A stretch of DNA of 64,000 bases from Pirellulaceae bacterium (GTDB taxonomy: Bacteria; Planctomycetota; Planctomycetia; Pirellulales; Pirellulaceae), in assembly GCA_963851305.1 (NCBI GenBank), contig CAWKOT010000011.1, positions 329,716 through 393,715 of the forward strand. Reading direction: 5' to 3'. Of this stretch, positions 1,184-36,168 are shown piece after piece. The stretch's first letter is position 1; the number at the start of each line of letters is the position of its first letter. Below the pieces are notes generated by a model. That model was not told the DNA's origin. It saw nothing but the letters and a program-made list of their open reading frames with translations, and ran no database searches. The position numbers and the translations under genes are program-made.

Positions 1184-1230
1184 CAGGGACCAGACAAGGC
1201 CGATGCAGCTCGCGGCGGCAGTGAGAGAAT

Positions 1231-3814: not shown

Positions 3815-3829
3815 GGCTGATCCAGATTC

Positions 3830-6067
3830 ATGAACCATAAAAATCGCCAGCATCTTAAACTGCCTGCCGAGATCGCCGCGCAATTGCGCGAACTGCGTCG
3901 ACGCCTGAAACGCTGGGTGTTGATCCGCGGCCTGAGCCGGTGGCTTCTACTGGTGCTGGCCATTATCGGGTTCGACATCCTGCTGGATCGGTTCTTCAAG
4001 ATGGATTTCGCGCAGCGGGCGATCATGTTGACCGTCATGCTGCTGCTGTTTGCAGGACTGTTCCTGTGGCGCGTGGTACGACCCTTGATGTCGCGCATTT
4101 CCGATAACGGGCTGCTGCTGGAAATCGAAAACAGGCATCCCGAACTGAAAGAGAATCTGATTAGCGGAGCGCAGCTTGCCCAGCAATCGGATTTGGAATC
4201 CAAAGGCGTGTCCCTGGAATTGGCGAACGCGACCATTGAACGCAGCCTGGAACTGGCGCGGCGGTTGGACGTCAGCGATACCATCAATCAGGTGGAAAAC
4301 CGGAAAAATGCAGCGCTGCTGGGAACGGGTCTGTTGCTGGCCCTGGCGCTTGCGGCCGCGGTCGGACAGTCCAGCTTTTTTCGCACCTGGTTCAATCGCA
4401 ATATTCGGTTGACCTCAGATCAATGGCCCCAGGCAACCTACTTGCAGATTGTGGGCGCCCGGGATGGCGAATTGGTGCTGCCGCGGGGTGTGGACCATCG
4501 GTTGATCGTTGAAGTGACTGAAGATAGTCGAATCAGGGACGTCGACGTGTTTCTGGAAATCGATGGTGCCGCCGGGCAAACGGTGCATCAGATGAAACCC
4601 ACGGGCAAGCGGAATGGGCGTGAACATCTGTTTGTGATGCACAACGTGACCTCCGAAGCTCGATTGCGGGCCCGCGGCGGAGACGATATCACGTCGCAGG
4701 TTGCCATCCGGCTTGTGGAACCGCCGGCCATTATGGATTTGCAGCTGTCGGCGGTGTTGCCCTCGTATACCCGGATGCCGGACCGGCGGCTGGAAGGCCC
4801 GGGGCCGCACAGCTTGCTGGCCGGTAGCCGTGTCGATGGGATCGCCCGCGTCAACAAGAAGCTGCAGAAGTTTCAATTGACCAGTGAGGGCCAGGTCGTC
4901 AATTTGCAGCCAGCCGACCAGGAAGACGTTTACCAGTTTCAAATTCCAGGAACTGACCAGCGACTGGCCGGCGGTCGGTACGAATTCAGTCTGGTGGACG
5001 AAGCGGGGCTGGCCTCCACGCGCCCAAGTCGCTTTACGATCAATATCAAGGAAGACCAGCCGCCGCGTGTGCGGGCGACGTTGCTCGGCATCAGTGGACT
5101 GGCGGTCCCCCGCGCTCGCATCCCGCTGTCCTTTAATGCCCGGGACGAATATGGGCTGGCTACGGTCGGCTTTCAGGCCAACTGGAAAAATGCGGATCAG
5201 GAAGACAGCGATTCTGGTAAAGAACGTGCTTTGCCGATCAGGAAATTTCCCTCGGGGCAGGAACCGGTGTTACAGCATCAGGATGTGGCCGTGCTGGATC
5301 TTGAACCGCTGTTGCTGACGCCGGGTACCAGTTTCCGGCTGTTGATTCGCGCCACCGACACTCGTCCCGGTCAACCCAACGCGGGGGATTCCCCGGAATT
5401 TCTGCTCCGGATTGTGTCGGAAGAGGAACTTCGGGCAGACCTGTTGCGTCGAGAAATAGAGCAACGGAAGGCCTTTCAACGGGCTTACGATGCACAACTG
5501 GAAGCGATGGCTGAGTTGCAGGCGATTACGGCGACAGGAGCTTCGCCATTGGATCGGAACGACGCCGGCACCGACCGGCCGTCGCGGATGATTGGGCTGG
5601 TGCGAGACCAGAAACTGGTGGGAACCAGTCTGGCGGCCATCGCTGATCAATTTGAAGAGTTTCTCGTGGAGGTGCAAAACAATCGACTCGACGAAGAAAC
5701 ACAGAAGATCGCCGGCGCACAGACGATTACCGATCGCTTCGACAATCAGATTGTTCAACCGATTCGAGCTTTGGATGCGGAATTGATCGCGGTGGCGACC
5801 CGTGGACTGGATAATTGCCGCCGATTGCTAAACGACCAGACCGGACTGGCCGCGGCGGTCGAATCGACAACGTCGATTCAGCAACAGATTCTGGACGAAA
5901 TGCAGCGGATCATGGCGGCCATGGTTGACTCCGAAAATTACCAGGAAGTGGTCAACAAGCTGCTGGAGATCAAGCGGGGCGAAGACCGGATCAAGTCGGA
6001 AATCAACAGCCGGAAAGAGAAACGGAATGAAACGATCATCGAAGAAGATATTTTTGACGACGATTGA
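3830..6067 (+). CDS. membrane-anchored hypothetical protein (large extracytoplasmic domain, C-terminal coiled coil)
   Basis: 745-aa ORF. N-terminal TM helices (WLLLVLAIIGFDILL, IMLTVMLLLFAGLFLW) precede a long soluble region. It follows the VWA gene in the same orientation with a 16-nt gap. Confidence 0.5.
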   Translation: MNHKNRQHLKLPAEIAAQLRELRRRLKRWVLIRGLSRWLLLVLAIIGFDILLDRFFKMDFAQRAIMLTVMLLLFAGLFLWRVVRPLMSRISDNGLLLEIENRHPELKENLISGAQLAQQSDLESKGVSLELANATIERSLELARRLDVSDTINQVENRKNAALLGTGLLLALALAAAVGQSSFFRTWFNRNIRLTSDQWPQATYLQIVGARDGELVLPRGVDHRLIVEVTEDSRIRDVDVFLEIDGAAGQTVHQMKPTGKRNGREHLFVMHNVTSEARLRARGGDDITSQVAIRLVEPPAIMDLQLSAVLPSYTRMPDRRLEGPGPHSLLAGSRVDGIARVNKKLQKFQLTSEGQVVNLQPADQEDVYQFQIPGTDQRLAGGRYEFSLVDEAGLASTRPSRFTINIKEDQPPRVRATLLGISGLAVPRARIPLSFNARDEYGLATVGFQANWKNADQEDSDSGKERALPIRKFPSGQEPVLQHQDVAVLDLEPLLLTPGTSFRLLIRATDTRPGQPNAGDSPEFLLRIVSEEELRADLLRREIEQRKAFQRAYDAQLEAMAELQAITATGASPLDRNDAGTDRPSRMIGLVRDQKLVGTSLAAIADQFEEFLVEVQNNRLDEETQKIAGAQTITDRFDNQIVQPIRALDAELIAVATRGLDNCRRLLNDQTGLAAAVESTTSIQQQILDEMQRIMAAMVDSENYQEVVNKLLEIKRGEDRIKSEINSRKEKRNETIIEEDIFDDD

Positions 6068-16003: not shown

Positions 16004-17302
16004 TCAGGCGTCTTGCCGGCAATGCTGGAAACGCCGTTCCACGGACCGGGCATGTGCTGCCAGGCCTTCCAGTCGCCCCATCGCCTCGGCATCAGTCGCC
16101 AGGCCAGCTGCCGCGACAGGATCATCGATCTGGAGTTGCGTCTGCATTCTCAAGAAAGTGGCTACCGAAAGCGGGCTGTTGGCGCAGGCCGCGCCTCCGG
16201 TCGGCAACACGTGATTCGGCCCTGCTCCGTAATCTCCCAGGACCTCCGCCGCGTAAGAACCGACAAACAACGCCGCGCCCATGTCGAACGTCTCAGCGAC
16301 AGCTTCAAATTCAGCCCCTTGCAACGAGAGATGTTCCGGAGCGATTCGCCGACAACATTCGACCGCCTGTTCCAGGCCGTCCACCACGACGTATCCACCC
16401 GATTGCAAGGCCGTCCGGGCAACTTCTGCGGTGGGCAGGTCGGACAGCTGTTTCTCCAGTTCCGCAGTCACCGCGTCAACCAGTGCTGACGAATTCGTGA
16501 TCAGGATCGGGCGGGCGTCGACATCATGTTCGGCTTGAGCCAACAGGTCCGCGGCGACAAAACCCGCGTCGGCGTCGGCGGAAGCCACGACCACCAATTC
16601 TGACGGTCCCGCCAGCATATCGATTCGCGTCGATCGCGCGACGAGCGCCTTGGCTGCGGTGACAAACCGATTTCCTGGTCCCACAATCACGTCACATTTT
16701 GGCAGTCCGCTGTCCAGACCGGTGCTCATCGCGGCGATCGCCTGAGCGCCGCCCACCGAAATCAACCCGTCGGCGTCTGCGATGGCCGCCGCGGCCAGCG
16801 TCACCGCATCAGGTCGTGGTGAGGCGACCCAGACTTCCCTTACCCCCGCCACTCGAGCCGTCACGGCCGTCATCAGCACCGATGACGGCAACGGATAGCG
16901 ACCACCAGGTGCGTAACATCCGGCCGCCCGCAACGGAATCCAGCGATGGCCGACCGAACCACCCGGAATGTCGACGGAGCAATCGGTAAGTGTTGCCAAT
17001 TGGATTTCGGCAAAACGTCGAATGCGATCGGCAGTCCGCTGCAGCAGCGAACGGATGTCGACATCGACCGTTTGCAGCGCGTTCAACAAATCTGGGCGAT
17101 GTTGTACAAGCGTCGCGTCCTCGGACAGACCGTCAAACTTCGCCGCATACCGACGCACAGCGGCTTCGCCTTCGGCCTGCACATCAGCAACGATCTGGCC
17201 AGCGACGTGATACGTTTCGTCATCGATCGACGAGGTGATCTGGTGAAGTTCATCCGGTGGCAGCTGACGAAATGGAAACATCTTTCGGGATCCTGGGTTC
17301 AA
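16004..17302 (-). CDS. hisD: histidinol dehydrogenase
   Basis: 432-aa ORF. Motifs IPGGSVGHRWIPLRAAGCYAPGGRYPLPSSVLMTAVTARVAGV and AGPNHVLPTGG are characteristic of HisD. Last gene of the his operon. Confidence 0.9.
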   Translation of the reverse strand: MNPGSRKMFPFRQLPPDELHQITSSIDDETYHVAGQIVADVQAEGEAAVRRYAAKFDGLSEDATLVQHRPDLLNALQTVDVDIRSLLQRTADRIRRFAEIQLATLTDCSVDIPGGSVGHRWIPLRAAGCYAPGGRYPLPSSVLMTAVTARVAGVREVWVASPRPDAVTLAAAAIADADGLISVGGAQAIAAMSTGLDSGLPKCDVIVGPGNRFVTAAKALVARSTRIDMLAGPSELVVVASADADAGFVAADLLAQAEHDVDARPILITNSSALVDAVTAELEKQLSDLPTAEVARTALQSGGYVVVDGLEQAVECCRRIAPEHLSLQGAEFEAVAETFDMGAALFVGSYAAEVLGDYGAGPNHVLPTGGAACANSPLSVATFLRMQTQLQIDDPVAAAGLATDAEAMGRLEGLAAHARSVERRFQHCRQDA

Positions 17303-18579
17303 ACGGTATCTCTGCGTGTGACCTTGTCTGCACGTCGGTCGAGTTCGTGTTCGATTTCCGAGAGAGGGATCTGTTCTTTGGCCAAACGAGCCATCGTAAA
17401 GAAGATCACATCGGCGGCTTCGTGAATCACATCCTGCCGGGCAACGGCCTCGTTCAACTCTCTGGCTTCCTCGGCTATTTTTTCAGCCAACAACGCGGGC
17501 GATTGAAACAGGCGATGGGTATACGAAGATTCAGGGGCCGTCCGCATCCGGTCGGCCAGCGTCGTCTCCAACCGCTGAATGCCCTTCAAATCACCGAAAC
17601 AGGTCGGTCGCGACAGATGACAGAATCCGTGTCCCTGCTGGTTCACCGCAAACATCAACGTATCGCGATCGCAGTCACAATGGATCGACAACATTTCTTG
17701 AGTGGCACCCGATGTTTCCCCCTTTCGCCACAGACCCCGTTTCCGCGAAAAGTAGTGCGCGGTTCCGGTATCCAGACTTCTCTGCACGCTTTCCAGGTTG
17801 GAATAGGTCAAGCCCAACGTCTGGCCGGAGGCATTGCAAACCACGGTCGGCCAGAGGCCGTCGGTTCGATCCGAAACCAGCGGTGCACAAAAACACTCCG
17901 CCAAAGTCAACTGCTCCGTGTACAAAGCCATGCCGACCTGGGCATCGATACCAAGTCGATCCAGGGCTGCGATCTCATCGACAGTGGCAACTCCGCCGGC
18001 GATCGTCAGTTGGGCATCTCCGGCGGCGTCCAGATATCGCTTGATCTGTTCAAGATCGATGCCCGCCATTCTGCCTTCCCTTTCAACGAAAGTGATCAGG
18101 AAGCCACCCACGAGATCGCGAAGCACTTCGATCCGCTCCAGCACCGTCGCGCCCGTTTCACGTGTCCAGCCTTGATCGACAACTTGACCGGTCGATCGGG
18201 TTGGATCTTCGGCCGTTCCGGTATGGACTGCGTCGAGTGCGGCGATCAGTCTGTTCCGAGGTAACTGGCTGAGAATCTCAGGTGTGGCGGCGGTGCCCAG
18301 GATCACCTTTTTTGCGCCGGCATCTAACCAGGAGATGGCGGTCTGCGCATCGCGAATGCCACCGCCGACTCGGCAGGGTGCCAAGGCCAACAGCTCGCGA
18401 ATGCGCTCCGTGTTATGGCCCTGTCCTCGGGCCGCATCCAGATCGATCACCGCGATCTCGCCGACTCGGCCGAATTTCTCGGCCAACGGTGCCGGATGGC
18501 CTGCGTTGAGCGCCTGTTCGCGACCGCCAATCAATTGTACGGCATCGCCTGATGCCAGATCTATCGAGGGGATTATCAT
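17299..18579 (-). CDS. hisA/hisIE: trifunctional HisA-HisI-HisE fusion (ProFAR isomerase + PR-AMP cyclohydrolase + PR-ATP pyrophosphatase)
   Basis: The N-terminal 235 aa, starting MIIPSIDLASGDAVQLIGG, is a HisA (beta/alpha)8 barrel. The middle region GETSGATQEMLSIHCDCDRDTLMFAVNQQGHGFCH is HisI. The C-terminal region YTHRLFQSPALLAEKIAEEARELNEAV...EAADVIFFTMARL is HisE. Confidence 0.85.
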   Translation of the reverse strand: MIIPSIDLASGDAVQLIGGREQALNAGHPAPLAEKFGRVGEIAVIDLDAARGQGHNTERIRELLALAPCRVGGGIRDAQTAISWLDAGAKKVILGTAATPEILSQLPRNRLIAALDAVHTGTAEDPTRSTGQVVDQGWTRETGATVLERIEVLRDLVGGFLITFVEREGRMAGIDLEQIKRYLDAAGDAQLTIAGGVATVDEIAALDRLGIDAQVGMALYTEQLTLAECFCAPLVSDRTDGLWPTVVCNASGQTLGLTYSNLESVQRSLDTGTAHYFSRKRGLWRKGETSGATQEMLSIHCDCDRDTLMFAVNQQGHGFCHLSRPTCFGDLKGIQRLETTLADRMRTAPESSYTHRLFQSPALLAEKIAEEARELNEAVARQDVIHEAADVIFFTMARLAKEQIPLSEIEHELDRRADKVTRRDTV

Positions 18580-19983: not shown

Positions 19984-20585
19984 TTACAGTGAACCTTTGG
20001 TGCTGGGAATGGAGCCTTCGGCGTCGGCCAGCGGTACCGACTGCGAACAAGCGGTACGCATGGCAATCCCGCACGACTTGAATGCGGCCTCGGCACGGTG
20101 ATGATCGTTCGCTCCCCGCAGGACATCCAGATGCAAAGTCAAACGACCGGCCATCGCCAGTGACTGAAAGAAATGAGTCAGATTTTCACAGGCGACGTTA
20201 CCCAGCAACTCCCGTTGCAAACCCAGTTCAACCACCGGGAACGGTCGACCGGAAAGATCGATCACGCAACGCGCCAGGGCTTCATCCAGCGGTGCGTAAG
20301 CGTGTCCAAACCTGCGAATGCCCTGCTTGTTGCCGATGCCCGACCGAGCGCTTCCCCAATGACCAGGCCGCAGTCTTCGACCGTGTGGTGATCGTCGACG
20401 TGCAAGTCTCCATTGGCCTGGAGTGTCAGATCCCAATTGGCGTGAAAGGCCAGGGCCGTCAACATGTGATCGAAGAACCCCAGTCCGGTCGAAACATCAA
20501 TCCGCCGATTTCCTTCCAGATCGATCTCCATTTCGATTTGGGTTTCTCGCGTTTGTCGTTGCAAGCGGCAGCTACGTTCACTCAT
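19984..20585 (-). pseudogene. hisB: imidazoleglycerol-phosphate dehydratase, monofunctional, split by a 1-nt frameshift near 20340
   Basis: N-terminal half (ORF 20262..20585: GLGFFDHMLTALAFHANWDLTLQANGDLHVDDHHTVEDCGLVIGEAL) and C-terminal half (ORF 19984..20436: IGNKQGIRRFGHAYAPLDEALARCVIDLSGRPF...) are in different frames. Junction at CTCGGTCGGGCATCGGC. Confidence 0.8.
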
Positions 20586-22342
20586 GGCAGGTACCTGTCC
20601 AGCGTATTCAAACGGTCCAGAATCAGTGTGGCTCGGGCTTGTCTCAGTTTTTCCAGGGCGAATCGCGGTTCGTCTTTAGGTGCCAGAATACCAAACGGTA
20701 ATACGCCGGCCTGTCGTGCCGCGTTGACATCGTCGGGAGTGTCTCCCACCATCCAGGCTCGATTGGTACCCAACTGGTCCAGAGCGGTTCTGACATTTGC
20801 CGGGTTCGGCTTGGCAGGGCCGTCCTCCATGCAAACCACGGCTGAGAAAAACTGGCTCAGTTGCTGCGATTCCAGGAAGCGGACGGCATCACATCGAGGT
20901 CGGCCGGTCACAATACCCAGTTTGATCCGCCGGCTCAGGTTCTGCAGCCATTGACGGTCAACCAGTTGTTCTTCCGTTTTCCACAGGCCTTCTCGCGATT
21001 CGTCCCCCTGGTAATACCGTTCATAACGCTCCTTGACTTCGTCGAAGGGTCTGTCGATGCCCTTTTCGCGAAGCAGTCGATGCGTAAAAATCCAGTCGTT
21101 GTTGGCGTCGCCGCAGAGTTTCTTTTCCGCGATCTCCATCATCGTGACCGGCAAGCCATACTCTGCGCAAGTCAAACGAATGGCTTCGCGGAACGAACTG
21201 GATTCGTCGACCAGTACCCCATCCATGTCGAAAAGCATGGCCTCGGGACGCAGAATGGTTCGCAAGGAAGCCGCCAGCCGCTCGTACGACGCCCGGTCAC
21301 CAGGACAGGTTATTCGCAGAACGTCAGGTTCACTTTGGAAGGACCTGACCGCAATCCCCAGCGAATCCAGTGCTTTGCCAACGAACTCAGCCGAAGGTCC
21401 GGTCAAACCGAAACGGGCGTACACGAAATTGGCCTGGGAAGGCAATGCTTCGGCGCCGCAGTCATTCAATAGATCCGCCAGTTGCTTTCGCTCTGAACGC
21501 ACCTGTTTCAGATATTCGGTGTCACCTTTGGGACGAGTTTGCAGCATCATGCCGGCAAATTTAAGGGCAGGCCCGGAAACCGGGTACGGCCCCCCTGCCC
21601 GATTCAACAGGGAAATGATGCTGTGGTGACCCATGGCGTAACCGACACGCAGACCGGCCATGCCCCAGGCTTTCGAAAACGTCCTGACGACTACCGCGTT
21701 CGGCAATTCCGACAGGGCAACCGATGTCAAATTGCCCGCGAGTAAGGCGTGCTCGTCGTCTTCGAACTCCGCATAGGCTTGATCGACCAGCAACACGGCG
21801 TGGGGAACGGCCGTTCCAATGGCCAAAAGCTCGTCAGTACCAATCGTGGCACCGGTCGGGTTGTTGGGCGAAACCAGCGCAATCACACTGGTTTTGCTGT
21901 CCGAGATCCGGATCATGTGGTCAATCGGAATACTCCCCCCTGTCCAGGGAACCTGTCGTATCTGCCCGCCAGCCACACTGGCGAAGTGCGGAATCATGGG
22001 AAAGGTCGGATCGGTAACCACGATGTTTCGATCGGCCTGAAGAAAGGCACGACAGATGCGATCGATCGCGTCATCCGCTCCGCTGGTCACGATCACCTGT
22101 TCCGGCGCGATGCTGAACCGGGTGGCGAGCATCCGGGAAATTGAATTCCGCGAGGGGTACTGTCGAATGTCATCGGGCGTGAAGAAGTCGTGAGCCAGAC
22201 CCGACAGGAGCGGGCCTTCGTTCGCATCCAGTTTCAAGTCGATGTGCGATTTTTCGCCAGCCAGCTCGTCTGTGGGCAGCCGCTCGATGCGGTCGGCCGG
22301 TTGAACTTTGGGGTCCCTGGTCGGTTTCAAATCAATCTTCAT
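20582..22342 (-). CDS. hisC: histidinol-phosphate aminotransferase fused to a C-terminal HAD-family phosphatase domain (candidate histidinol-phosphatase)
   Basis: The N-terminal 350 aa are a class-II aminotransferase (LDANEGP..., PLP-fold). The C-terminal 230 aa carry HAD motifs I (LFDMDGVLVDES), II (GIVTGRP) and III/IV (K...MVGDTPDDVNAARQAG). Confidence 0.85.
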   Translation of the reverse strand: MKIDLKPTRDPKVQPADRIERLPTDELAGEKSHIDLKLDANEGPLLSGLAHDFFTPDDIRQYPSRNSISRMLATRFSIAPEQVIVTSGADDAIDRICRAFLQADRNIVVTDPTFPMIPHFASVAGGQIRQVPWTGGSIPIDHMIRISDSKTSVIALVSPNNPTGATIGTDELLAIGTAVPHAVLLVDQAYAEFEDDEHALLAGNLTSVALSELPNAVVVRTFSKAWGMAGLRVGYAMGHHSIISLLNRAGGPYPVSGPALKFAGMMLQTRPKGDTEYLKQVRSERKQLADLLNDCGAEALPSQANFVYARFGLTGPSAEFVGKALDSLGIAVRSFQSEPDVLRITCPGDRASYERLAASLRTILRPEAMLFDMDGVLVDESSSFREAIRLTCAEYGLPVTMMEIAEKKLCGDANNDWIFTHRLLREKGIDRPFDEVKERYERYYQGDESREGLWKTEEQLVDRQWLQNLSRRIKLGIVTGRPRCDAVRFLESQQLSQFFSAVVCMEDGPAKPNPANVRTALDQLGTNRAWMVGDTPDDVNAARQAGVLPFGILAPKDEPRFALEKLRQARATLILDRLNTLDRYLP

Positions 22343-27217: not shown

Positions 27218-29020
27218 TCAATTGCCCCCCAGCTTGTTGAAATACTGCCTGGCATGTTCCCGTTGGGACCGAGGCAGTTTGTCCAGGGAGACCGGAGCCA
27301 CCTGTTTATTCATCGACGCCTGGATCGTCTCACGCAATTCCGACATGGACTGGCCACTCAGGTTCCGGCCATCGGCGCTGCCGGTAACCACCGTTTCACC
27401 CGGCTGCAGTTTGCCTTGTACTTTCGATTCGAACATTCCGGTTTCCGTTTCCTGTTTGTCTCGAAGGCCAGCGCCACGCCCTCCTCCTTGGGCGAAATCG
27501 ATCCGCCGTGGCTGGCCGTCCTGGTTGCCCTGGCAACCGTTGCAGGCATTCTTTGCATTCTCCAGGTCCTGCATGACATCTTCCAGATCTTGCAACTCCT
27601 GCATCTCGCTATCCAACTGTTCCATCATTCCTTCCAGATCCTCCAATGATTCCAGGGCTTCCTTCATTTGGGCGTCGGAAGGCTGATTGCCTGGTTGCCC
27701 CGATTTAGATTGTCCTCCACCCCGTTTCGGCTGCCCGTTACCCGGTTTCATGCAATCGGAACATTTCTGCAGTTTGTTGGCGGTTTCCTTCATTTTCTCA
27801 ATCTGTTGATCCTGCTGTTGCTTTTTTTCCAACTGCTGTTGCAGCTGAGCGGCTTTCTCCAGGTCACCATCCTGCATCGCCTTCTGGATTCTTTCCTGCA
27901 ATTCCTGTTTTTCCTGCTGGTGACGTTCGGCCATCTTCTGCAATTCTTCAGCAATCTTGGCCAGGTCCCTGGCCATCTTTCGTTTTTCGGATTCGCTCAG
28001 TTTTCCATTCTTCAGATCGTTGACCAGGTCGCGAATGGCCTTCTGCGCCTCCTTGAAATCACCTTCATTAATCGACTCCGACAGTTTCCTGGCTGGGCCA
28101 TCTACAATCCGTTTCAGCTGATTCAGCTTCTGTTTCATTTCCTTGGAATCGCCACCGATCTTCTGCTGCCGATCGGCAATCTGTTTCTTGGCATTATTCA
28201 ATTCAATCAGAGCCTGCTTTCTGTCGCTCTTCGTTTTGCTGGAGAGATTGTCAATTTTCTTCTGGATAGAGTTCAGAATATCCGCCGCGTCTTTCAGGCC
28301 TTTCGCTTCCAGCTCTTTCGCCTTCTGTTCGATCTTCTTCCGAGGTTGCTCCAAGGCGATCTTGATTTCCTCTGAGTCCCCTTCCGCGGACGCCGCCACC
28401 GCACTGGCTGACGCGTCGGGGAGCAGGAACATGACGGCCAGCAGCACCGCGGGGATGACGGGCAACAGCAGCAGGCGATTCGGTTGCCATCTGAATTGAT
28501 CCCGCACATCGATCAATTCGGCCCGCTCATTGGCGTCTCGAATCAACGCCTGCCCCGCCTCCGATTGTCGTTCTTCTTCCGTCAAGGCCAGTGCCGTGGA
28601 CAGCCGCTCCTTTAGCTCGAAACGCCGGTCGACTTCGATGGCGGAATCCAGTTGGCGGTTGCGCCGAACCCAGGTCCAAATGATGGCCAACAGGCAGCCC
28701 CACAGGATGCCTCCCAGTGGCCAGGACAAGAGCCACAATTGCTGTCGGGATGGAGACTCCAGGAACGGAAGGTGCCAGAACTTGGGTACGCCCAATCCAA
28801 TCACCGCCAGGCTCAGACCGATGCCCAATGACAGGCACAGCCGTTTGGCAAACTGGATCAAGAGCATTCGGCGATGGGCCCGATTGACCTGTAGATGGAT
28901 CTGATTCATCTTTGAACCTGCAATCAAATCATTGAATTCAATGCGGACTGGCTGCACGTATTTTAACGCCGCCCGGCGATTTGGTGACCTATTCTGACCA
29001 TTTTTTCGTTCTCTCGACAA
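27218..29020 (-). CDS. hypothetical membrane protein with a long coiled coil and an acidic C-terminal region
   Basis: 600-aa ORF with two to three TM helices near the N-terminus and a very K/E/Q-rich coiled coil. The antisense ORFs inside it are artefacts. Confidence 0.5.
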   Translation of the reverse strand: MSRERKNGQNRSPNRRAALKYVQPVRIEFNDLIAGSKMNQIHLQVNRAHRRMLLIQFAKRLCLSLGIGLSLAVIGLGVPKFWHLPFLESPSRQQLWLLSWPLGGILWGCLLAIIWTWVRRNRQLDSAIEVDRRFELKERLSTALALTEEERQSEAGQALIRDANERAELIDVRDQFRWQPNRLLLLPVIPAVLLAVMFLLPDASASAVAASAEGDSEEIKIALEQPRKKIEQKAKELEAKGLKDAADILNSIQKKIDNLSSKTKSDRKQALIELNNAKKQIADRQQKIGGDSKEMKQKLNQLKRIVDGPARKLSESINEGDFKEAQKAIRDLVNDLKNGKLSESEKRKMARDLAKIAEELQKMAERHQQEKQELQERIQKAMQDGDLEKAAQLQQQLEKKQQQDQQIEKMKETANKLQKCSDCMKPGNGQPKRGGGQSKSGQPGNQPSDAQMKEALESLEDLEGMMEQLDSEMQELQDLEDVMQDLENAKNACNGCQGNQDGQPRRIDFAQGGGRGAGLRDKQETETGMFESKVQGKLQPGETVVTGSADGRNLSGQSMSELRETIQASMNKQVAPVSLDKLPRSQREHARQYFNKLGGN

Positions 29021-31448: not shown

Positions 31449-32627
31449 TCACAACAGGTTGACGACCCGGTCCGCCAGGCCCTGTTCACCGAGCACGACG
31501 TTCAGGTTACCGCTGGACGCGACCTTTTCCAGAACTTCCAGTTCTCGCAGTCGCATCAAGGTCGGGTTGTCCACCAACAGCCGGGCGGTATTCGACTGGC
31601 TGCGCATGGCTGCGGTTTCCTCGCGACGGGCAATCAGGTTGGCTTCGGCCGCCTTCCTGGCTTCGGTCACCTTGTTCATCAGGTCCTTCATTTCGCCCGG
31701 CAGGATGATGTCGCGGATACCCACCGATACGATCGCCAGTCCCAATTCACTCGCCCGCTGGTGTAGTTGTTGCTGGAATTCGTCAGTCACGGCATCCTTG
31801 TCGGTCAAGAACGAATCCAGATCACGGGTGCCCACCAACGCTCGCAGCGCCAACTGCGCCTGGCGGTACAGGGACTGCATCGCGCCATCGCTGACCATCA
31901 CGGCCTTGCAGGCATCGATTACCTTGTAGGTGACCAGTGCGTTCATCCGCAGGGTGACCTTGTCGGCGGTCATGATTTCCTGGCCCGCCACATCCAGGGT
32001 CTGTTCACGGGTGTCCACTTCGACCACCTTGGTATCCGCCACGTTCTTCCAGAACGCGTATTGTCCCGGTGACAGAGTTTCCACCAGGCGACCATCGCAA
32101 AAGGCCACGCCGACGTGGTTCCGCTGCACGGTGCAGACATCCAACAGGCCGGTGGCGCCGGATGAACGAACGATCGACATCAATTCGGCGTGATCAAATC
32201 GCACCTGGTGAGCGTCCACCAGTTCCACGCGGACGTCCTTGAAGCCGGTCCAGTAGGCGTACAGCCCCGGCGACAGCACGTGACTGAAACGACCGTCGAT
32301 CCAGACCAGACCACGCTGGTGATCCTTCAGATCGACAACTTCTGCCAGGCCCTTGAGCGCGCCACTCTTGATCATCACCTCCAGTTCGTCGTGGATGATC
32401 CATGCGTTTCGCTGTGAAACCACTTCCACGCGGACCTTCCACAGCGGATCGAACAGCCGGTGCTGACCGGCGGTCAGCACACGCTGGAATTCACCATCGC
32501 GGAAGTACAGACCGATTTCGTAACGGCGAATCTTTACTCGCTTGAAGATCATGGTCTTCCTCCCTTCGTCAAATAGACTTGAAAATTCACTCATAACACC
32601 AACCCAAATCAGCGACGGACCAGCCAT
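31449..32627 (-). CDS. SPFH/band-7 (stomatin/prohibitin-like) domain protein with an N-terminal threefold repeat
   Basis: The C-terminal SPFH core is TADKVTLRMNALVTYKVID...IVSVGIRDIILPGEMKDLMNKVTEARKAAEANLI. The N-terminal 200 aa hold three copies of a (F/W)xDGxF..L(S/T)xGxY motif. Confidence 0.7.
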   Translation of the reverse strand: MAGPSLIWVGVMSEFSSLFDEGRKTMIFKRVKIRRYEIGLYFRDGEFQRVLTAGQHRLFDPLWKVRVEVVSQRNAWIIHDELEVMIKSGALKGLAEVVDLKDHQRGLVWIDGRFSHVLSPGLYAYWTGFKDVRVELVDAHQVRFDHAELMSIVRSSGATGLLDVCTVQRNHVGVAFCDGRLVETLSPGQYAFWKNVADTKVVEVDTREQTLDVAGQEIMTADKVTLRMNALVTYKVIDACKAVMVSDGAMQSLYRQAQLALRALVGTRDLDSFLTDKDAVTDEFQQQLHQRASELGLAIVSVGIRDIILPGEMKDLMNKVTEARKAAEANLIARREETAAMRSQSNTARLLVDNPTLMRLRELEVLEKVASSGNLNVVLGEQGLADRVVNLL

Positions 32628-33052
32628 CCGGTTTGGATGGACGTCTCCGGTCCGATTTGGCTGCGTGATTGATTTACCATTTGGATGTCTGTTCTGGGTG
32701 CCGGTTCGCGTTTGTCTGAAAAACTCCCTCCGTCAGCAGAACCATCGTTCGATCACACGTCCGAAACGCGGAGTGCTGTTTGAGCGGTCATGTTCATGGA
32801 AGACGTGGGCAACTTTCGCGGCCGAAGCCAGGCAAGCTAATGCTTGTCTGACGTCATGCCGTTCCCGTTGCCGCGATCGACCACGCGCGTGAAGGCGGTA
32901 TCCACGCACTGCAGGGCGCCGGTAAGTGTTGCCGCGAATGTTCCACGGAACGACCAGGCGTCCGGGGTAATTCACGGCCGATCCAACGACGGTCTGCCGA
33001 CTTCGGGATTCAGGGAGGGACCTTGCGGTCCCGTGCAAGCTGCAAGACTTGC

Positions 33053-33125
33053 GGTGTGGTACGGGAATCGAACCCGTGACAACCAGGTTAACAGCCTGAT
33101 GCTCTGCCAACTGAGCTAACCAATG
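33053..33125 (-). tRNA. tRNA-Asn(GTT)-like; acceptor-stem halves mismatched at the top three pairs (possible pseudo or chimeric tRNA)
   Basis: D-arm GCTC/GAGC, anticodon arm TCAGG-CTGTTAA-CCTGG and T-arm ACGGG-TTCGATT-CCCGT are all good. The 3' acceptor ACCACAC does not pair with the 5' CATTGGT. Confidence 0.45.
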
Positions 33126-33340
33126 AAGGTTGGTTTCGCCATGCCAGTTCGAAGCCAATCACGGTACACTCAACACCAACCAGCTGAATGGGGTGCAGAA
33201 CGCCGCTGGCCATTCTGGCCAAACCTTGCCTGAAAATTCATGTGGATCATCTTCCGTTCAACCACGTCCGTGATGGCAGTGGCTTATTCTTGCCCGTCGT
33301 ACGCCAACCAGGTTAAACGTCAGTCCAACAGGGGACCAGG

Positions 33341-33411
33341 AGACGCCGATGGGAGTCGAACCCATTTCGACCGGGTTGCAACCGGTTGCCTGGCCGTCTG
33401 GCTCCAGCGCC
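33341..33411 (-). tRNA. tRNA-Cys(GCA)-like
   Basis: Anticodon arm ACCGG-TTGCAAC-CCGGT, T-arm ATGGG-TTCGACT-CCCAT. Acceptor GGCGCTG/CGGCGTC pairs with two G-U wobbles. G8, 3-bp D-stem. Confidence 0.5.
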
Positions 33412-33418
33412 CAAATAG

Positions 33419-33489
33419 TAGCCCGTCCAGGAATCGAACCTGGCCTGCGACCTTCGCACGGTCGCGTGCCTCCAACACACTCACAGGCT
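33419..33489 (-). tRNA. tRNA-Arg(GCG)-like
   Basis: Anticodon loop GTGCGAA between CGACC/GGTCG. T-arm CCAGG-TTCGATT-CCTGG. Acceptor AGCCTGT/ACGGGCT. G8 and GTGT D-stem. Confidence 0.5.
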
Positions 33490-33556
33490 ATCTTGTCTTT
33501 TCAGGTTTTCATTTTGATGGTCGGCTCCAACGATCTGTTTCCTTGGCCGTCATCAG

Positions 33557-33628
33557 TACCTCGCCAGGGAATCGAACCCCGTCCTGCAGATTCGAAGTCT
33601 GCCGTGCCATCCGTCACACTCGCAAGGC
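33557..33628 (-). tRNA. tRNA-Arg(TCG)
   Basis: Anticodon arm GCAGA-CTTCGAA-TCTGC. T-arm CGGGG-TTCGATT-CCCTG. Acceptor GCCTTGC/GCGAGGT with two G-U pairs. Confidence 0.55.
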
Positions 33629-33659
33629 ATCCGCATTGGCTTACCGCTGGCCGGTCGAG

Positions 33660-33730
33660 CAGGAGTGCCAGGAATCGAACCCTTTGGTGGCGGTTTTGGA
33701 GGCCGCCCGCTTGCCCAGAAGCACACTGCC
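33660..33730 (-). tRNA. tRNA-Trp(CCA)-like (weak T-stem)
   Basis: Anticodon loop CTCCAAA. T-loop TTCGATT, but the T-stem pairs poorly (AAGGG/CCTGG). Possibly affected by an indel. Confidence 0.4.
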
Positions 33731-33740
33731 GAAGGCGAAG

Positions 33741-33814
33741 GGTATCCGACGGGAATCGAACCCGTACTTCCTGCTTCACAGGCAGGCGTGCATGCCCGCT
33801 ACACTTCGGATACC
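33741..33814 (-). tRNA. tRNA-His(GTG) with G-1
   Basis: Acceptor GTATCCG/CGGATAC is perfect, with an extra 5' G pairing the C73 discriminator. Anticodon arm CCTGC-CTGTGAA-GCAGG. T-arm ACGGG-TTCGATT-CCCGT. A8. Confidence 0.75.
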
Positions 33815-33870
33815 ATGCCAGGGAGATGAAAAGTCGTCGATCCGAAACCGATACGGCCTGGACCAGACTG

Positions 33871-33951
33871 TTTTCATCAGTGGAACGTCGGGGAGTCGAA
33901 CCCCGATTGTCCGGTTGCAAACCAGAAGTCTTCCCGTTGGACCAACGTCCC
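33871..33951 (-). tRNA. tRNA-Ala(TGC) with the G3:U70 identity pair
   Basis: Acceptor GGGACGT/ACGTTCC gives G3-U70. Anticodon arm TCTGG-TTTGCAA-CCGGA. T-arm CGGGG-TTCGACT-CCCCG. U8. Confidence 0.7.
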
Positions 33952-33962
33952 CTGATTGCCCG

Positions 33963-34033
33963 AGGTCCGTCCGGGGTTCGAACCCGGTCTTCGTCGGTAC
34001 CATCAACGCGTGCTGCCGGAACACTTACAGACC
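33963..34033 (-). tRNA. tRNA-Thr(GGT)
   Basis: Anticodon arm CGTTG-ATGGTAC-CGACG. T-arm CCGGG-TTCGAAC-CCCGG. Acceptor GGTCTGT/ACGGACC. A8, GTGT/GCAC D-stem. Confidence 0.6.
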
Positions 34034-34069
34034 AATACAGGCGTCCCCATTTGCCGGGGCAACCTGAAG

Positions 34070-34138
34070 TAGCGGGACCGGGAGTCGCACCCGATGGTCA
34101 AGGCATATGAAACCTCGCTGAGCACTCGCTCGCCCGCT
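34070..34138 (-). tRNA. tRNA-Met(CAT)-like with a non-canonical T-loop (TGCGACT)
   Basis: Anticodon loop TTCATAT. The T-loop has G in place of T55. Acceptor has one mismatch. Possibly degenerate. Confidence 0.4.
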
Positions 34139-34337
34139 CGATTCTTCTTTTGCCGTCCTCCGTCCGTTGCGCTCGGCACGTTGGCAATCCGCTCTGGATC
34201 GGGTTTGTCAGGCCCCACCAGACAGCTGGCCAGATTGCCGTTAATACGAAGCACTGCAGCTTTGCGACTCCAGTAATCTCCAGCAATCTGTCAACGCTCC
34301 TGCGACGGATCCGCCGTACGGACCGTTGATTGTCGAG

Positions 34338-34417
34338 TAGCACGGGTGGGAGTCGAACCCACAGACAATCACGAAGGTTTGAGCTTCGCCGCTTTACCAT
34401 GATTTGCGCACCGTGCC
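34338..34417 (-). tRNA. tRNA-Leu(CAA)-like (extended variable region)
   Basis: Anticodon arm CGAAG-CTCAAAC-CTTCG. Variable region of about 9 nt. T-arm GTGGG-TTCGACT-CCCAC. Acceptor GGCACGG/CCGTGCT. Confidence 0.55.
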
Positions 34418-34424
34418 GCTTGAG

Positions 34425-34499
34425 CGCCCCCGATGGGATTTGAACCCACGACCTCCTGTGTGACAAACAGGCGAGCACTCCGGACTGCTCCACGAGGAC
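34425..34499 (-). tRNA. tRNA-Asp(GTC)
   Basis: Acceptor GTCCTCG/CGGGGGC. D-arm GAGC/GCTC. Anticodon arm CCTGT-TTGTCAC-ACAGG. T-arm GTGGG-TTCAAAT-CCCAT. Canonical U8. Confidence 0.75.
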
Positions 34500-34511
34500 A
34501 TTACATTGCAG

Positions 34512-34584
34512 TAGTCCTGGGTGGACTCGAACCACCGATCTGCTGCTTGTAAGGCAGTTGCCCTCGCCGCTGGGCCACAGGACC
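34512..34584 (-). tRNA. tRNA-Val(TAC)
   Basis: Acceptor GGTCCTG/CAGGACT. D-arm GCCC/GGGC. Anticodon loop CTTACAA. T-arm GGTGG-TTCGAGT-CCACC. Confidence 0.7.
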
Positions 34585-34593
34585 ATGGGTCAG

Positions 34594-34677
34594 CGGAAGC
34601 CGTGGGACTCGAACCCACAAGTCGCGGTACGACCGACTGTTTTCAAGACAGTTTCCTCATCCGGCCGGATGGCTTCC
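34594..34677 (-). tRNA. tRNA-Ser(TGA), type II with a long variable arm
   Basis: Acceptor GGAAGCC/GGCTTCC is perfect. Anticodon arm ACTGT-CTTGAAA-ACAGT. Variable arm of about 17 nt. T-arm GTGGG-TTCGAGT-CCCAC. Confidence 0.7.
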
Positions 34678-34688
34678 GTATTCGCCAG

Positions 34689-34759
34689 CTGCGGGAGTTG
34701 GAATCGAACCAACATCGAAACGTTCAGAGCGTTTCATCCTGCCATTAGAAGATCCCGCA
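34689..34759 (-). tRNA. tRNA-Gln(CTG)
   Basis: Acceptor TGCGGGA/TCCCGCA is perfect. Anticodon arm AAACG-CTCTGAA-CGTTT. T-arm GTTGG-TTCGATT-CCAAC. Confidence 0.65.
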
Positions 34760-34775
34760 GGAGTATTTGCGTCAG

Positions 34776-34848
34776 CTGCGGCGGCAGGAATCGAACCTGC
34801 GGCACGAAGATTAACAGTCCCCGCCCCGTACCAACACAGGACACCGCA
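34776..34848 (-). tRNA. tRNA-Asn(GTT)
   Basis: Acceptor TGCGGTG/CGCCGCA. Anticodon loop CTGTTAA. T-arm GCAGG-TTCGATT-CCTGC. Weak D-stem. Confidence 0.55.
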
Positions 34849-34933
34849 TCAATTTCGTCAATCACAATGGCGGTGTACCCACGCCGGTCTCAACGGATTG
34901 ATGACGAGCGCAGCGGTGCCACGTGTTCACGGA

Positions 34934-35004
34934 AGCGCCCAGCCGGAATCGAACCGACACATCCTGCATGGCAAGCAGGAAGGCTGCCACTACATCATGG
35001 GCGC
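34934..35004 (-). tRNA. tRNA-Gly(GCC)-like (degenerate D-arm)
   Basis: Acceptor GCGCCCA/TGGGCGC is perfect. Anticodon arm CCTGC-TTGCCAT-GCAGG. T-arm GTCGG-TTCGATT-CCGGC. The D-stem is not clearly paired. Confidence 0.5.
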
Positions 35005-35073
35005 GATACAACGCGAACCGAATTGTCAAAGATCAGGCGCGGGTTGTTCAGCATGGCCGAACTTTCCGTGCGT

Positions 35074-35146
35074 TTGTTTTCAGTGGGACCGGAGGGACTT
35101 GAACCCTCACCCGCCTGGGTAAGAACCAGGGATGCTGCCGTTAACA
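35074..35146 (-). tRNA. tRNA-Lys(CTT)
   Basis: Acceptor GGGACTG/CGGTCCC. Anticodon arm CCTGG-TTCTTAC-CCAGG. T-arm GAGGG-TTCAAGT-CCCTC. A8, GTGT D-stem. Confidence 0.6.
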
Positions 35147-35310
35147 CCTCAGTCCCCAATGGTCTGCCGTTGGCATGAAGGAATTGCATCTGGCGGTGTG
35201 ACTTGTCAGATCAACACGCTAAACACGAAGCTTCAGGCCTGCTGTGCGGTATTTCCAACACTCCAGCGGTGATTCATTTGAATTTCCGTTTCCCATTGGT
35301 TCTGGTTTCA

Positions 35311-35383
35311 GTGGTAGTCCTGGGAATCGAATCCTCGTCTGCAGTTTTTCAGACTGCCGCTAAACCGTCTCAGCTACCGGCCC
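35311..35383 (-). tRNA. tRNA-Phe(GAA)-like 5' half with a non-matching 3' half (probable pseudo or chimeric tRNA at the upstream end of the array)
   Basis: The 5' acceptor GGGCCGG, D-arm GCTG-AGACGGTT-TAGC and anticodon arm GCAGT-CTGAAAA-ACTGC are coherent. The T-stem does not pair, and the expected 3' acceptor CCGGCCC is absent. Confidence 0.4.
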
Positions 35384-36168
35384 GTTTCTGTTCTGATTCG
35401 TTTGCCTTTTCCTTTCTCGCCTGCGTTATTTCTTGAGCACGATTCATTTCAAGCGTTGAATGGGGATCGAGGCTGCTGACAAAACACCATGTCCAAAGGA
35501 AGTCTTGGCAGGAACCTCGACCTAGCCCATGAACAATCGAAGTTCAACCGGATCCACAAAAAAACCCGATGTCGCTTTGACACCGGGTCGTGTGGCTCGT
35601 GTGAGTCTCACTGCGTGTCAGAAGCGTGATCGTTGTTCGGCATGCGCACGACGACCCTGATTATTTGCCCGATGAGCAAACTGGATCGAGGGACAGCCGG
35701 TCAGCGATAACAATTTCATTTCTATGATTGATGACATGGCAAAGTTCTTATTGCGGTGTTCTACCCGTGAAGGGGGGCGAATCATGTTACACGTCTTTAG
35801 AGCAAGCCAACGACGAAGAGTTCGCCGGTTTTCAAAAAAAATCCGGATTTGTTTTCCGGCTGGTCACCCAGTCTACGCCCACCGCTGGATCGTTCCGGCA
35901 AGCAACCGCCGGCGTTCCTGTCTACGTTATTTGTCAGAATGAGGCCCTGGCACGGCCGCCTCGCAATACGGCCTGCACCGCGCTTGGATTGATCAGCGCC
36001 GAAGTCCATCCCGCACCAGGCTACCGCTGATCCGGATTGGGGGACGGCCGAAGGGGCAGCCGCGGGCCGGCGAAATCAGGCGAATTTTGCAAACTGTAAT
36101 TAGCGACAAAACCGTTGTGACCTGCCCTAATCGGCAGAAGTTTTCAATTTGAAGTTGAAAAAACCCCG

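Follow-up and report, generated by a model that had tools for sequence, protein, structure and literature searches.

A 64,000-nucleotide stretch of the genome of a Pirellulaceae bacterium (Planctomycetota; assembly GCA_963851305.1, contig CAWKOT010000011.1, positions 329,716 to 393,715), referred to here as the window, carries a dense array of transfer RNA (tRNA) genes on its minus strand. The array lies between a short leader open reading frame (ORF) with a terminator on its 5′ side and a tRNA-like element with a conserved structured RNA on its 3′ side, and it is followed by a gene for slipin. All positions without a locus name are those of the window.

The tRNA gene array and its members

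At default settings, ARAGORN called 14 tRNA genes in the whole 64-kb window, all of them on the minus strand between 33339 and 35156. These are Cys(gca), Arg(gcg), Arg(tcg), His(gtg), Ala(tgc), Thr(ggt), Leu(caa), Asp(gtc), Val(tac), Ser(tga), Gln(ctg), Asn(gtt), Gly(gcc) and Lys(ctt), and the same scan found no further tRNA genes in the window outside this interval. The RF00005 model of Rfam reached its gathering score at 12 sites in a whole-window scan and at 13 sites in a local scan, including two sites that default ARAGORN had missed (33057–33122 and 35315–35383), and a lower-threshold ARAGORN run added Trp(cca) at 33659–33730. The density reaches about 7 tRNA genes per kb (16 genes in 1.8 kb, or in 2.3 kb including the ends), the spacers are mostly 6–15 nt long, no isoacceptor is present twice, and none of the array tRNAs of the window has an encoded CCA. 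The dense array is real and far beyond chance.

A sequence-only reading of this DNA had counted about 18 tRNA genes with 16 identities. The array itself stands, as do the minus-strand orientation of all members and the short spacers, and the 14 genes and 12–13 sites recovered by the two programs leave no place for a locus with only one or two real tRNAs. The tally is reduced to 16 plausible tRNA genes for 15 amino acids, one probable pseudogene and one tRNA-like element, as two of the 18 are not tRNA genes: the first supposed Asn (33057–33122) is a conserved tRNA-like element, and the supposed Phe (35311–35383) is a deletion chimera of Phe and Ile. Likewise, four ORFs of 250–275 amino acids had been placed across the array, and two overlap it.

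The slipin gene at 31449–32552 on the minus strand (SPFH/Band 7 family, Pfam PF01145; 100% identical to P0001) served as the anchor for comparison. A set of 80 slipin loci from species-representative genomes was collected and scanned for tRNAs; individual loci are denoted by the letter L and a number, and the four nearest relatives of the window are L001 (Adhaeretor mobilis), L002, L006 and L033.

Read 5′ to 3′ on the minus strand, the intact genes begin with tRNA-Lys(ctt) at 35083–35156 (RF00005 score of 50.8 bits; 96–97% identical to the L002 and L006 orthologs) and tRNA-Gly(gcc) at 34934–35004 (53.1 bits), which has an atypical D-arm and orthologs of 95–97% identity. They are followed by tRNA-Asn(gtt) at 34775–34848 (32.6 bits; 82–88% identical to the L001, L002 and L033 orthologs) and tRNA-Gln(ctg) at 34688–34759 (53.3 bits), both with U1-A72 and G73. 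The next gene, tRNA-Ser(tga) at 34593–34677, has a long variable arm and is 90% identical to its L001 ortholog; in Rfam, it gave only a sub-threshold tRNA-Sec match (38.3 bits). The middle of the array includes tRNA-Val(tac) at 34511–34584, with the top score of the array (66.1 bits), tRNA-Asp(gtc) at 34424–34499 (52.8 bits) and tRNA-Leu(caa) at 34337–34417 (45.7 bits, supported also by its fold), in which the variable region is short. Further along, tRNA-Thr(ggt) at 33962–34033 stays under the Rfam gathering score and has orthologs of 84–86% identity, tRNA-Ala(tgc) at 33880–33951 (52.1 bits) carries G3:U70, and tRNA-His(gtg) at 33740–33813 (60.4 bits) has an encoded G-1 opposite C73. The series ends with tRNA-Arg(tcg) at 33556–33628 (30.6 bits, a partial match; 93–96% identical to the L002, L006 and L033 orthologs), tRNA-Arg(gcg) at 33418–33489, and tRNA-Cys(gca) at 33339–33411 (45.1 bits; U73). 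In several loci without an array, this last tRNA-Cys is still retained beside the tRNA-like element. All of these genes belong to the default ARAGORN set.

Two members are weaker. The tRNA-Trp(cca) found at 33659–33730 in the lower-threshold run is non-canonical, yet it is 89% identical to the L006 ortholog, and it is a conserved ortholog despite its weak score. The Met(cat)-like tRNA at 34070–34138 is only 69 nt long; it was called neither by default ARAGORN nor as Met at the lower threshold, and the only Rfam match at its site is a sub-threshold one (20.1 bits) to a different family. Its position is colinear with the array Met(cat) genes of relatives, which are 69–71 nt long, and its 3′ end matches the Met gene of L035.

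The element at 35311–35383 on the minus strand (31.9 bits) combines the 5′ part of Phe(gaa) with the 3′ end of Ile(gat). Its first 57 nt are 91–93% identical to the array Phe(gaa) of the four best-matching loci, the alignment with array Phe is lost beyond the T-loop, and the terminal 20 nt are identical to the 3′ end of the array Ile(gat) of locus L006. Since relatives have the order Phe, Glu, Pro, Ile, a deletion between two T-loops would have removed Glu and Pro and left a mismatched acceptor stem, and the chimera is probably a pseudogene. The gaps of the array were considered as decayed tRNAs too; remnants can be recognised only for the 3′ end of Met and the 5′ part of Phe, and the other gaps show no such similarity.

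Two further peculiarities of the array tRNAs were observed. In most loci, the array tRNA-Leu(caa) is 73–81 nt long, lacks the long variable arm of the canonical 85-nt form, and is nevertheless conserved (for example, window 34337–34417, or L033 6633–6708 in the array against L033 15860–15944). Additionally, the array has Arg(GCG) and not the usual bacterial Arg(ACG), both in the window (33418–33489) and in 35 related loci.

Site, order and descent of the array in related loci

Array counts refer to the loci for which 6 kb or more of upstream sequence was available (42 loci). The slipin of the window is 77–78% identical to its orthologs in the Adhaeretor mobilis locus (Adhaeretor belongs to the Lacipirellulaceae, Pirellulales), in a Bythopirellula sp. 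metagenome-assembled genome (MAG) and in two further MAGs. Directly upstream of slipin, 21 of the 42 loci hold 10–40 co-oriented tRNAs, with at least 20 in 16 loci, and 15 loci keep only 0–2. The comparison of gene order that the sequence-only reading had proposed gave the same order and the same slipin anchor in these 21 loci. The common order begins with Phe, Glu, Pro, Ile, Lys, Ile(tat), Lys, Thr, Gly, Pro, Asn, Ser, Gly, Gln, Gln; continues with Ser, Val, Leu, Asp, Leu, Tyr, Glu, Leu, Met, Leu, Val, Thr, Ala, Ala, Ser, Arg, Ser, His; and ends with Trp, Thr, three or four Arg, Cys, the tRNA-like element and slipin.

The order in the window is this common series with deletions. The arrays of the relatives cover all 20 amino acids; the window has no Glu, Ile, Pro or Tyr genes, as had been noticed before, and an intact Phe gene is missing as well. 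The absences of Glu, Ile, Pro and Tyr fall exactly at the window's deletions relative to the ancestral order and are therefore not a design feature of the array. Ile(UAU), present in 10 related loci, is not found in the window; its place is the stretch between Phe and Lys(ctt), which the window has lost, the Phe/Ile deletion being part of this loss. Large arrays occur in Adhaeretor, Lacipirellula and Bythopirellula (Pirellulales) and in MAGs labelled Planctomycetaceae (labels unconfirmed). Thalassoglobus and Schlesneria MAGs (Planctomycetales) have the tRNA-like element with one or two tRNAs only, and Aeoliella sp. SH292 (L016), a close relative, has the tRNA-like element and no array.

The pattern of sequence change is informative about selection. 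Compensatory changes were found in 15 of 22 pairs of Asp(gtc) across 26 loci, in 13 of 21 pairs of Arg(gcg) across 36 loci, in 13 of 20 pairs of Trp(cca) across 33 loci, and in 7 of 19 pairs of Gly(gcc) across 20 loci. Compared with the orthologs of L001, L002, L006 and L033, the tRNA bodies of the window are on average 84–90% identical, with Gly and Lys reaching 97%, while the spacers between orthologous array genes cannot be aligned; for slipin, third codon positions are 53–59% identical in ungapped comparisons. Identity elements are retained, namely G3:U70 in Ala, G-1/C73 in His, U73 in Gly and Cys, U1-A72 with G73 in Gln and Asn, and G73 in Asp. Because the cloverleaves are kept by compensatory change and the bodies are conserved between unalignable spacers, the array tRNAs are, as judged from these alignments, under purifying selection and not drifting pseudogenes.

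This evidence has to be set against a different explanation, in which the locus is a decaying relic, i.e., a cluster of tRNA pseudogenes without present function, preceded by an ORF and a terminator that are unrelated leftovers. It is an unlikely one, as the stems are maintained by many compensatory changes across distant lineages, the bodies remain 84–97% identical next to randomised spacers, and the aminoacylation identity elements are intact. A relic would nevertheless account for the unusual D-arms and low covariance scores of many array tRNAs (30–66 bits in the window, with four ARAGORN genes under the gathering score in the whole-window scan), for the Phe/Ile chimera, for the gaps where relatives hold tRNAs, and for the 15 of 42 loci with only 0–2 tRNAs. 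The literature term for such clusters is also degenerate, and one report calls them possibly dispensable (Kim et al. 2016, PLoS One, PMC4807772).

The fixed locus and the gene order argue, at the level of sequence comparison, for vertical descent of the array with repeated loss. The same is indicated by variants that follow the grouping of the nearest relatives, such as the Arg(gcg) acceptor AGCCTGT, common to the window and L001, L002, L006 and L033. Moreover, the discriminator is followed by C-U in 84–85% of the array tRNAs (n = 820) and in 5 of 9 off-array tRNAs, and by CCA in 1.6%. Such trailers are found in the window at, for instance, 35082–35081 and 33879–33878, and they may be a planctomycete 3′-processing signal; the idea that they are specific to arrays was dropped, as they are also present on the off-array tRNAs (nine compared).

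The surroundings of the array consist of ordinary chromosomal and housekeeping genes. Slipin lies directly downstream, a KAS III-like gene lies upstream on the opposite strand, and a histidine biosynthesis operon, a Ser/Thr kinase gene and a pseudouridine synthase gene are found in the flanks. No integrase was found among the large flanking ORFs, no repeat boundary was seen in the window, and neither rRNA nor any other Rfam family reached the gathering level in the 64-kb window, in agreement with the earlier statement that integrase and rRNA are missing from the flanks. The histidine operon contains two fused genes on the minus strand (17299–18579 and 20582–22342), one ORF joining His_biosynth, PRA-CH and PRA-PH domains, and the other joining a class I/II aminotransferase to a HAD hydrolase. 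A 600-amino-acid ORF without a Pfam match is located at 27218–29020 on the minus strand, about 2.4 kb downstream of slipin.

With a constant site between the leader and the tRNA-like element and slipin, a constant order, no integrase or repeat boundary in the window, tRNA variants that track the nearest-relative grouping, and trailers like those of the nine off-array tRNAs, it is improbable that the array is a mobile module of phage or integrative-element origin that spreads between planctomycetes. Some observations would fit such a module. The distribution is patchy, an IS66 transposase lies near the start of the L033 array, and a gene for an HNH endonuclease of about 200 amino acids (PF01844, PF14279; for instance, L047 1937–2518 and L003 7625–8197) stands between His and Trp in 19 related loci, with homologs of 38–39% identity beside differently ordered arrays on L096 and L097, which are filed in IMG/VR and whose viral status is unconfirmed. 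Published opinion likewise favours transfer (PMC8421152, PMC4758250, PMC4807772). The HNH gene is present neither in the window nor in the four nearest relatives, and a phage origin was rejected, given that the only IMG/VR contig with the same array (94 kb; L081/L085, IMGVR_UViG_3300007072_000340), which bears the full array and the tRNA-like element, also carries slipin. This slipin suggests that the contig, although filed as viral, is probably a planctomycete chromosomal fragment or contains one. An ancient horizontal transfer, prior to vertical descent, is possible. On the whole, the proposal of a native operon instead of a freshly acquired mobile module is supported by site, order, shared variants, flanks and trailers. 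Its accompanying premise, that planctomycete tRNA genes are dispersed and that arrays are rare and foreign in this phylum, has to be given up, as degenerate clusters had already been reported for many Planctomycetes (PMC4807772).

Genes of RNA metabolism accompany the array in some relatives. In L001, Rsr (Ro60), two copies of YrlA, RtcB, an ORF of unknown function and RtcA occupy positions 26–4767, directly upstream of the array leader, and they share its orientation. In L058, Rsr is located within the array; in L059 and L063, RtcB with RtcA, or RtcA alone, is found in the 1–2 kb downstream of slipin. Homologs of RtcB, RtcA, Rsr, HNH and RNA ligase were not found in the window. Other insertions were observed within arrays. 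An ORF of about 266 amino acids without a Pfam match occurs in L006 (7827–8624), L033 (7964–8752), L005 (8216–9016), L014 (6099–6892) and L069 (5455–6087); it follows Arg(gcg) in L005 and precedes His in the other four. Further inserts, in L041 (7097–7873), L045 (8218–9294), L040 (7155–8141), L017 (8349–9283) and L002 (5216–5873), include an RNA ligase (PF09414), HEPN-type proteins (PF18730, sub-threshold; PF09509), DUF5677 and DUF4291, and these inserts are reminiscent of RNA-conflict or RNA-repair cargo.

Where it can be checked in relatives, the array tRNAs are duplicates of canonical genes. In L022, the scores are 49.7 bits for the array Arg(ccg) and 71.7 bits for an off-array Arg(ccg) of the same locus, the two being 68% identical. 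In L033, the array Leu(caa) is 76 nt long and lacks the long variable arm, as opposed to 85 nt for the canonical copy. The scores of the window array span 30.6–66.1 bits, compared with 54–72 bits for off-array tRNAs of related loci (61–72 bits without type II Leu). The top-scoring array members of relatives are Ile(UAU) genes, with 71–74 bits in the three loci scored.

These features are those of a kind of object that is already known. Kim et al. (2016) described 'degenerate tRNA gene clusters' of 2–28 co-oriented genes in many Planctomycetes, with scores significantly below those of the other tRNA genes of the same genome. In three genomes, canonical genes elsewhere were found for every cluster anticodon except UAU, and a single canonical, high-scoring Ile(UAU) was reported only inside such clusters. 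The clusters were characterised by weak similarity and disrupted synteny, and horizontal acquisition was favoured (PMC4807772). Planctomycetes are also among the phyla with long arrays in two surveys (PMC4758250, PMC8421152). As that report described planctomycete clusters and the surveys list the phylum, the array belongs to this known planctomycete kind of degenerate cluster and long array. It shares with the clusters the phylum, the co-orientation, the lower scores, the redundancy and, in relatives, an Ile(UAU) inside the array, which the window copy lacks. It differs from what the accessible part of PMC4807772 presents in that site, order and tRNA sequences are conserved here across many lineages, with covarying stems, and in that neither a leader switch nor a tRNA-like element with a downstream RNA is mentioned there.

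Other categories can be compared in the same way. A tRNA array unit has been defined by at least 20 tRNA genes at a density of at least 2 per kb (Tran et al. 2016, PMC4758250). The density of the array lies above this limit, and one strand and many isoacceptors are involved; the number of genes lies below it (14 firm, 2 weak and 1 chimera), although 16 of 42 relatives reach 20. The mobile-element context of array units and phage clusters was not seen here. The L-arrays of Santamaria-Gomez et al. (2021) are described as horizontally spread, often plasmid-borne and additional to the housekeeping tRNA set (PMC8421152). Like them, the present array is long, co-oriented, closely spaced and non-periodic; extra genes were seen for single isoacceptors in relatives, and HNH, RtcB, RtcA and Rsr genes lie in or near arrays of the window's relatives. 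Horizontal spread is the point of difference, as a fixed chromosomal site, a fixed order and lineage-specific variants are found here. An ordinary rRNA-linked tRNA operon, which would have made the array unremarkable, does not fit either, given that no rRNA match was found in the 64-kb window or in the six related loci scanned.

The redundancy also bears on another functional explanation, namely that this is a constitutive housekeeping operon with the cell's main tRNA genes for these anticodons. The intact identity elements and strong conservation would be expected of it, the arrays of relatives span all 20 amino acids, and Ile(UAU) was reported only inside clusters (PMC4807772). We consider it very improbable nonetheless: close relatives such as Aeoliella sp. 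SH292 (L016) have no array, the window lacks Glu, Ile, Pro, Tyr and intact Phe genes, canonical duplicates lie beside the arrays of relatives, a terminator precedes the array, and, according to PMC4807772, canonical genes exist elsewhere for all cluster anticodons except UAU.

The leader and the adjacent structured RNA

Alignment of the DNA upstream of the first tRNA revealed a leader module in 17 loci, including the window. A small ORF in these loci ends in UGA inside a conserved box, CGC-NNN-TGACAC-TTGGCC. Counted from the aligned ATG, the leader ORFs have 32–49 codons, their length differences are whole codons, and most relatives show a purine-rich, Shine–Dalgarno-like stretch together with the aligned ATG. 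The conserved ending is Arg(CGC)-X-UGA, with Arg at position -2 conserved in at least 90%; this CGC codon is readable by the GCG anticodon found in the array. In the window, all on the minus strand, the leader ORF (33 codons plus UGA) spans 35618–35719, with in-frame ATG alternatives at 35737 and 35785, and the box with the leader stop (CGC TTC TGA CAC ...) lies at 35609–35626. An 'FAxQxAN' peptide motif of the leaders was considered as a constraint on the protein and rejected: as read by eye, it appears to stem from an RNA hairpin in the middle of the ORF, which shows compensatory changes, at least for L045 and L069.

About 25–40 nt past the box, an intrinsic terminator follows, with the form GCCCGGTGTC-loop-GACATCGGGC and then five to eight T; in the window, it is GACCCGGTGTC-loop-GACATCGGGTT with seven T, at 35556–35589. 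Across the 17 loci, 98.9% of the cells of the terminator are paired. In 14 of 17 loci, it lies 0–90 nt ahead of the first tRNA, a distance too short, or nearly so, for a separate promoter. By its complementarity to both the 5′ arm and the loop of this terminator, the box could act as an antiterminator: when the RNA is cut before the 3′ arm of the terminator, it folds box-to-arm in all 17 loci, with 10–15 bp and -16 to -30 kcal/mol. Antiterminator cells are paired in 81.6%, compared with 28–40% in slid controls. Furthermore, in three loci, a position of the shared arm covaries with both alternative partners (alignment columns 11, 51 and 63), and three-way covariation of this kind marks a two-state switch. 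Deletion of Phe and its neighbours (L001, L017, L020 and L050) has left the module in place at the 5′ end. This persistence, whichever tRNAs are lost, speaks further against a relic with an unrelated upstream ORF and terminator. A second terminator-like hairpin with a T-run, at 35843–35859 on the minus strand and recognised by a consensus scan only, would close the upstream transcription unit and mark the upstream limit of the array unit.

In attenuators of the trp type, an intrinsic terminator is combined with a short ORF whose end is overlapped by an alternative helix, and the position of the ribosome selects the fold. A terminator and a mutually exclusive antiterminator that overlaps the ORF end are likewise predicted here. 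The differences are that a tRNA operon is located downstream in place of a biosynthetic operon, and that a conserved Arg(CGC)-X-UGA ending is present where no run of regulatory codons was found. Modelled in this way, the leader suggests that the array is induced when translation falters.

At the other end of the array, the tRNA-like element occupies 33058–33121 on the minus strand and scores 54.1 bits with RF00005, matching model positions 4–67 only. It is present in 58 of the 80 related loci as well as in the window. Its D-arm, anticodon stem and T-arm are conserved, and its acceptor stem has only 3–5 bp. The triplet in the loop is free to change (examples are atg, gat, ctt, aag, agt, act, agg and att), the loop has 8 nt in some loci, and U33 is not conserved. 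The seven-pair acceptor stem and the conserved anticodon loop of a canonical tRNA are thus both missing, and the element is not a decoder.

The element forms the 5′ end of a longer conserved structured RNA at 32716–33057 on the minus strand, in which two covarying hairpins are followed by a multi-helix domain (33002–32731) and a T-run. This domain of about 270 nt is closed by a 13-bp long-range helix, and the structured RNA together with the tRNA-like element spans about 400 nt in the window, from approximately 33121 to 32716. In an alignment of 41 sequences, 62 pairs are predicted for the combined RNA, and 43 of these show compensatory change. Over the same pairs, 93.7% of cells are paired, versus 34–47% in slid controls, and none of 500 shuffles matches it. 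Rfam gave no match to it even at E values up to 10. A protein gene between the tRNA-like element and slipin, for example one for an NfeD partner, was considered and rejected, since no reading frame is conserved there; for this reason, an RNA is preferred. The structured RNA also occurs in loci without any array, which indicates that, as a partner of slipin, it is older than the array or has been retained more strongly. It may be released at the tRNA-like element as an RNA of its own, or it may be a large element of the slipin 5′ untranslated region.

Elements that are processed as tRNAs or mimic them include the bacterial YrlA Y RNA-like RNAs (RF02553) and mascRNA. The window element resembles these in keeping the elbow formed by the D-arm and T-arm, in not decoding, and in standing at the 5′ end of a longer structured RNA, and RNase P or RNase Z could, by the same logic, cut it. 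It differs in that it matches neither YrlA nor, apart from the tRNA model RF00005, any other Rfam family, and in that its anticodon stem is of normal length with a free loop.

A proposed reserve tRNA operon

Taken together, these observations are best explained by an ancient chromosomal reserve tRNA operon of Planctomycetia, of which the window holds a local, partly eroded copy. The array would comprise extra, non-canonical isodecoders that are kept by selection and switched by a leader. To this reading, we assign a probability of roughly 0.6. The unit would consist, 5′ to 3′ on the minus strand, of a promoter, the leader ORF, the antiterminator/terminator, about 16 tRNAs, the tRNA-like element, the RNA of about 400 nt and slipin. 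With the stop codon inside the box, a ribosome that has translated the leader to its end would hide the antiterminator, and termination could proceed. In healthy translation, the ribosome at the leader UGA would therefore cover the box, the terminator would form, and the array would stay off. Should ribosomes on the leader slow down or be blocked, the box would pair with the 5′ arm of the terminator, and the polymerase would read into the array. From the resulting polycistronic precursor, RNase P and a 3′ endonuclease or exonuclease would release the tRNAs, with CCA presumably added after cleavage, since none is encoded. Once charged, the products may serve as a reserve or alternative tRNA pool under translational stress or tRNA damage.

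By analogy, this agrees with the Anabaena sp. PCC 7120 trn operon, which is silent until ribosome inhibitors are added (PMC8421152). A homing endonuclease gene is linked to the Anabaena array, rtcB is co-regulated with it, and regulation operates through promoter repeats (PMC8421152); in the planctomycete operon, a leader-ORF terminator/antiterminator switch is predicted instead. The RNA-repair genes that neighbour the array in some relatives may point in the same direction as the co-regulation of rtcB in Anabaena.

Several observations weigh against the proposal of a reserve operon. The window leader has no clear Shine–Dalgarno sequence, none of the other 16 antiterminators is as weak as its own (10 bp, -15.9 kcal/mol, equalled by 24 of 200 box shuffles), and the 172 nt between the terminator and the first array element, the chimera, offer space for a separate promoter, so that the coupling of leader and array is less certain in the window than elsewhere. 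A sigma-70 promoter scan around the array gave no match. The leader peptides are poorly conserved (mean column identity of 29%), and no run of regulatory codons was identified in the leader, for which no dedicated test was made. Neighbouring RNA-repair genes are found in few loci only and are absent from the window. In addition, many relatives have lost the array altogether, and the window copy has lost several tRNAs and holds a chimera, which suggests that selection on the operon is weak or conditional.

A wider form of the proposed reserve operon can be considered tentatively, with odds somewhat below even. Here, a translation-sensing leader attenuator gating a reserve operon vertically inherited across Planctomycetia, together with the tRNA-mimicking RNA of about 400 nt at its end, would make up a backup translation kit that is linked to RNA repair by Rsr, YrlA, RtcB and RtcA in some lineages. 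Faltering ribosomes or damage to tRNAs would switch this kit on.

Relative to the reports found, the conserved site, order and structure of the array, the predicted leader-ORF attenuator and the adjacent tRNA-like structured RNA appear new, and literature searches returned no earlier description of a tRNA cluster regulated by a leader.

Long tRNA arrays are usually held to be horizontally acquired and of unclear use, with a known physiological role only in Anabaena. The fixed site of the planctomycete array and its maintained order and cloverleaves argue that a genome can keep additional tRNA sets under selection for a long time. Together with its large covarying RNA, the tRNA-like element is a candidate for a new class of structured RNAs in a phylum for which few RNAs have been described. 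Cultured carriers of the array exist, namely Adhaeretor mobilis and Lacipirellula limnantheis, and the predicted leader switch provides a concrete mechanism by which such bacteria may activate another pool of tRNAs under compromised translation.

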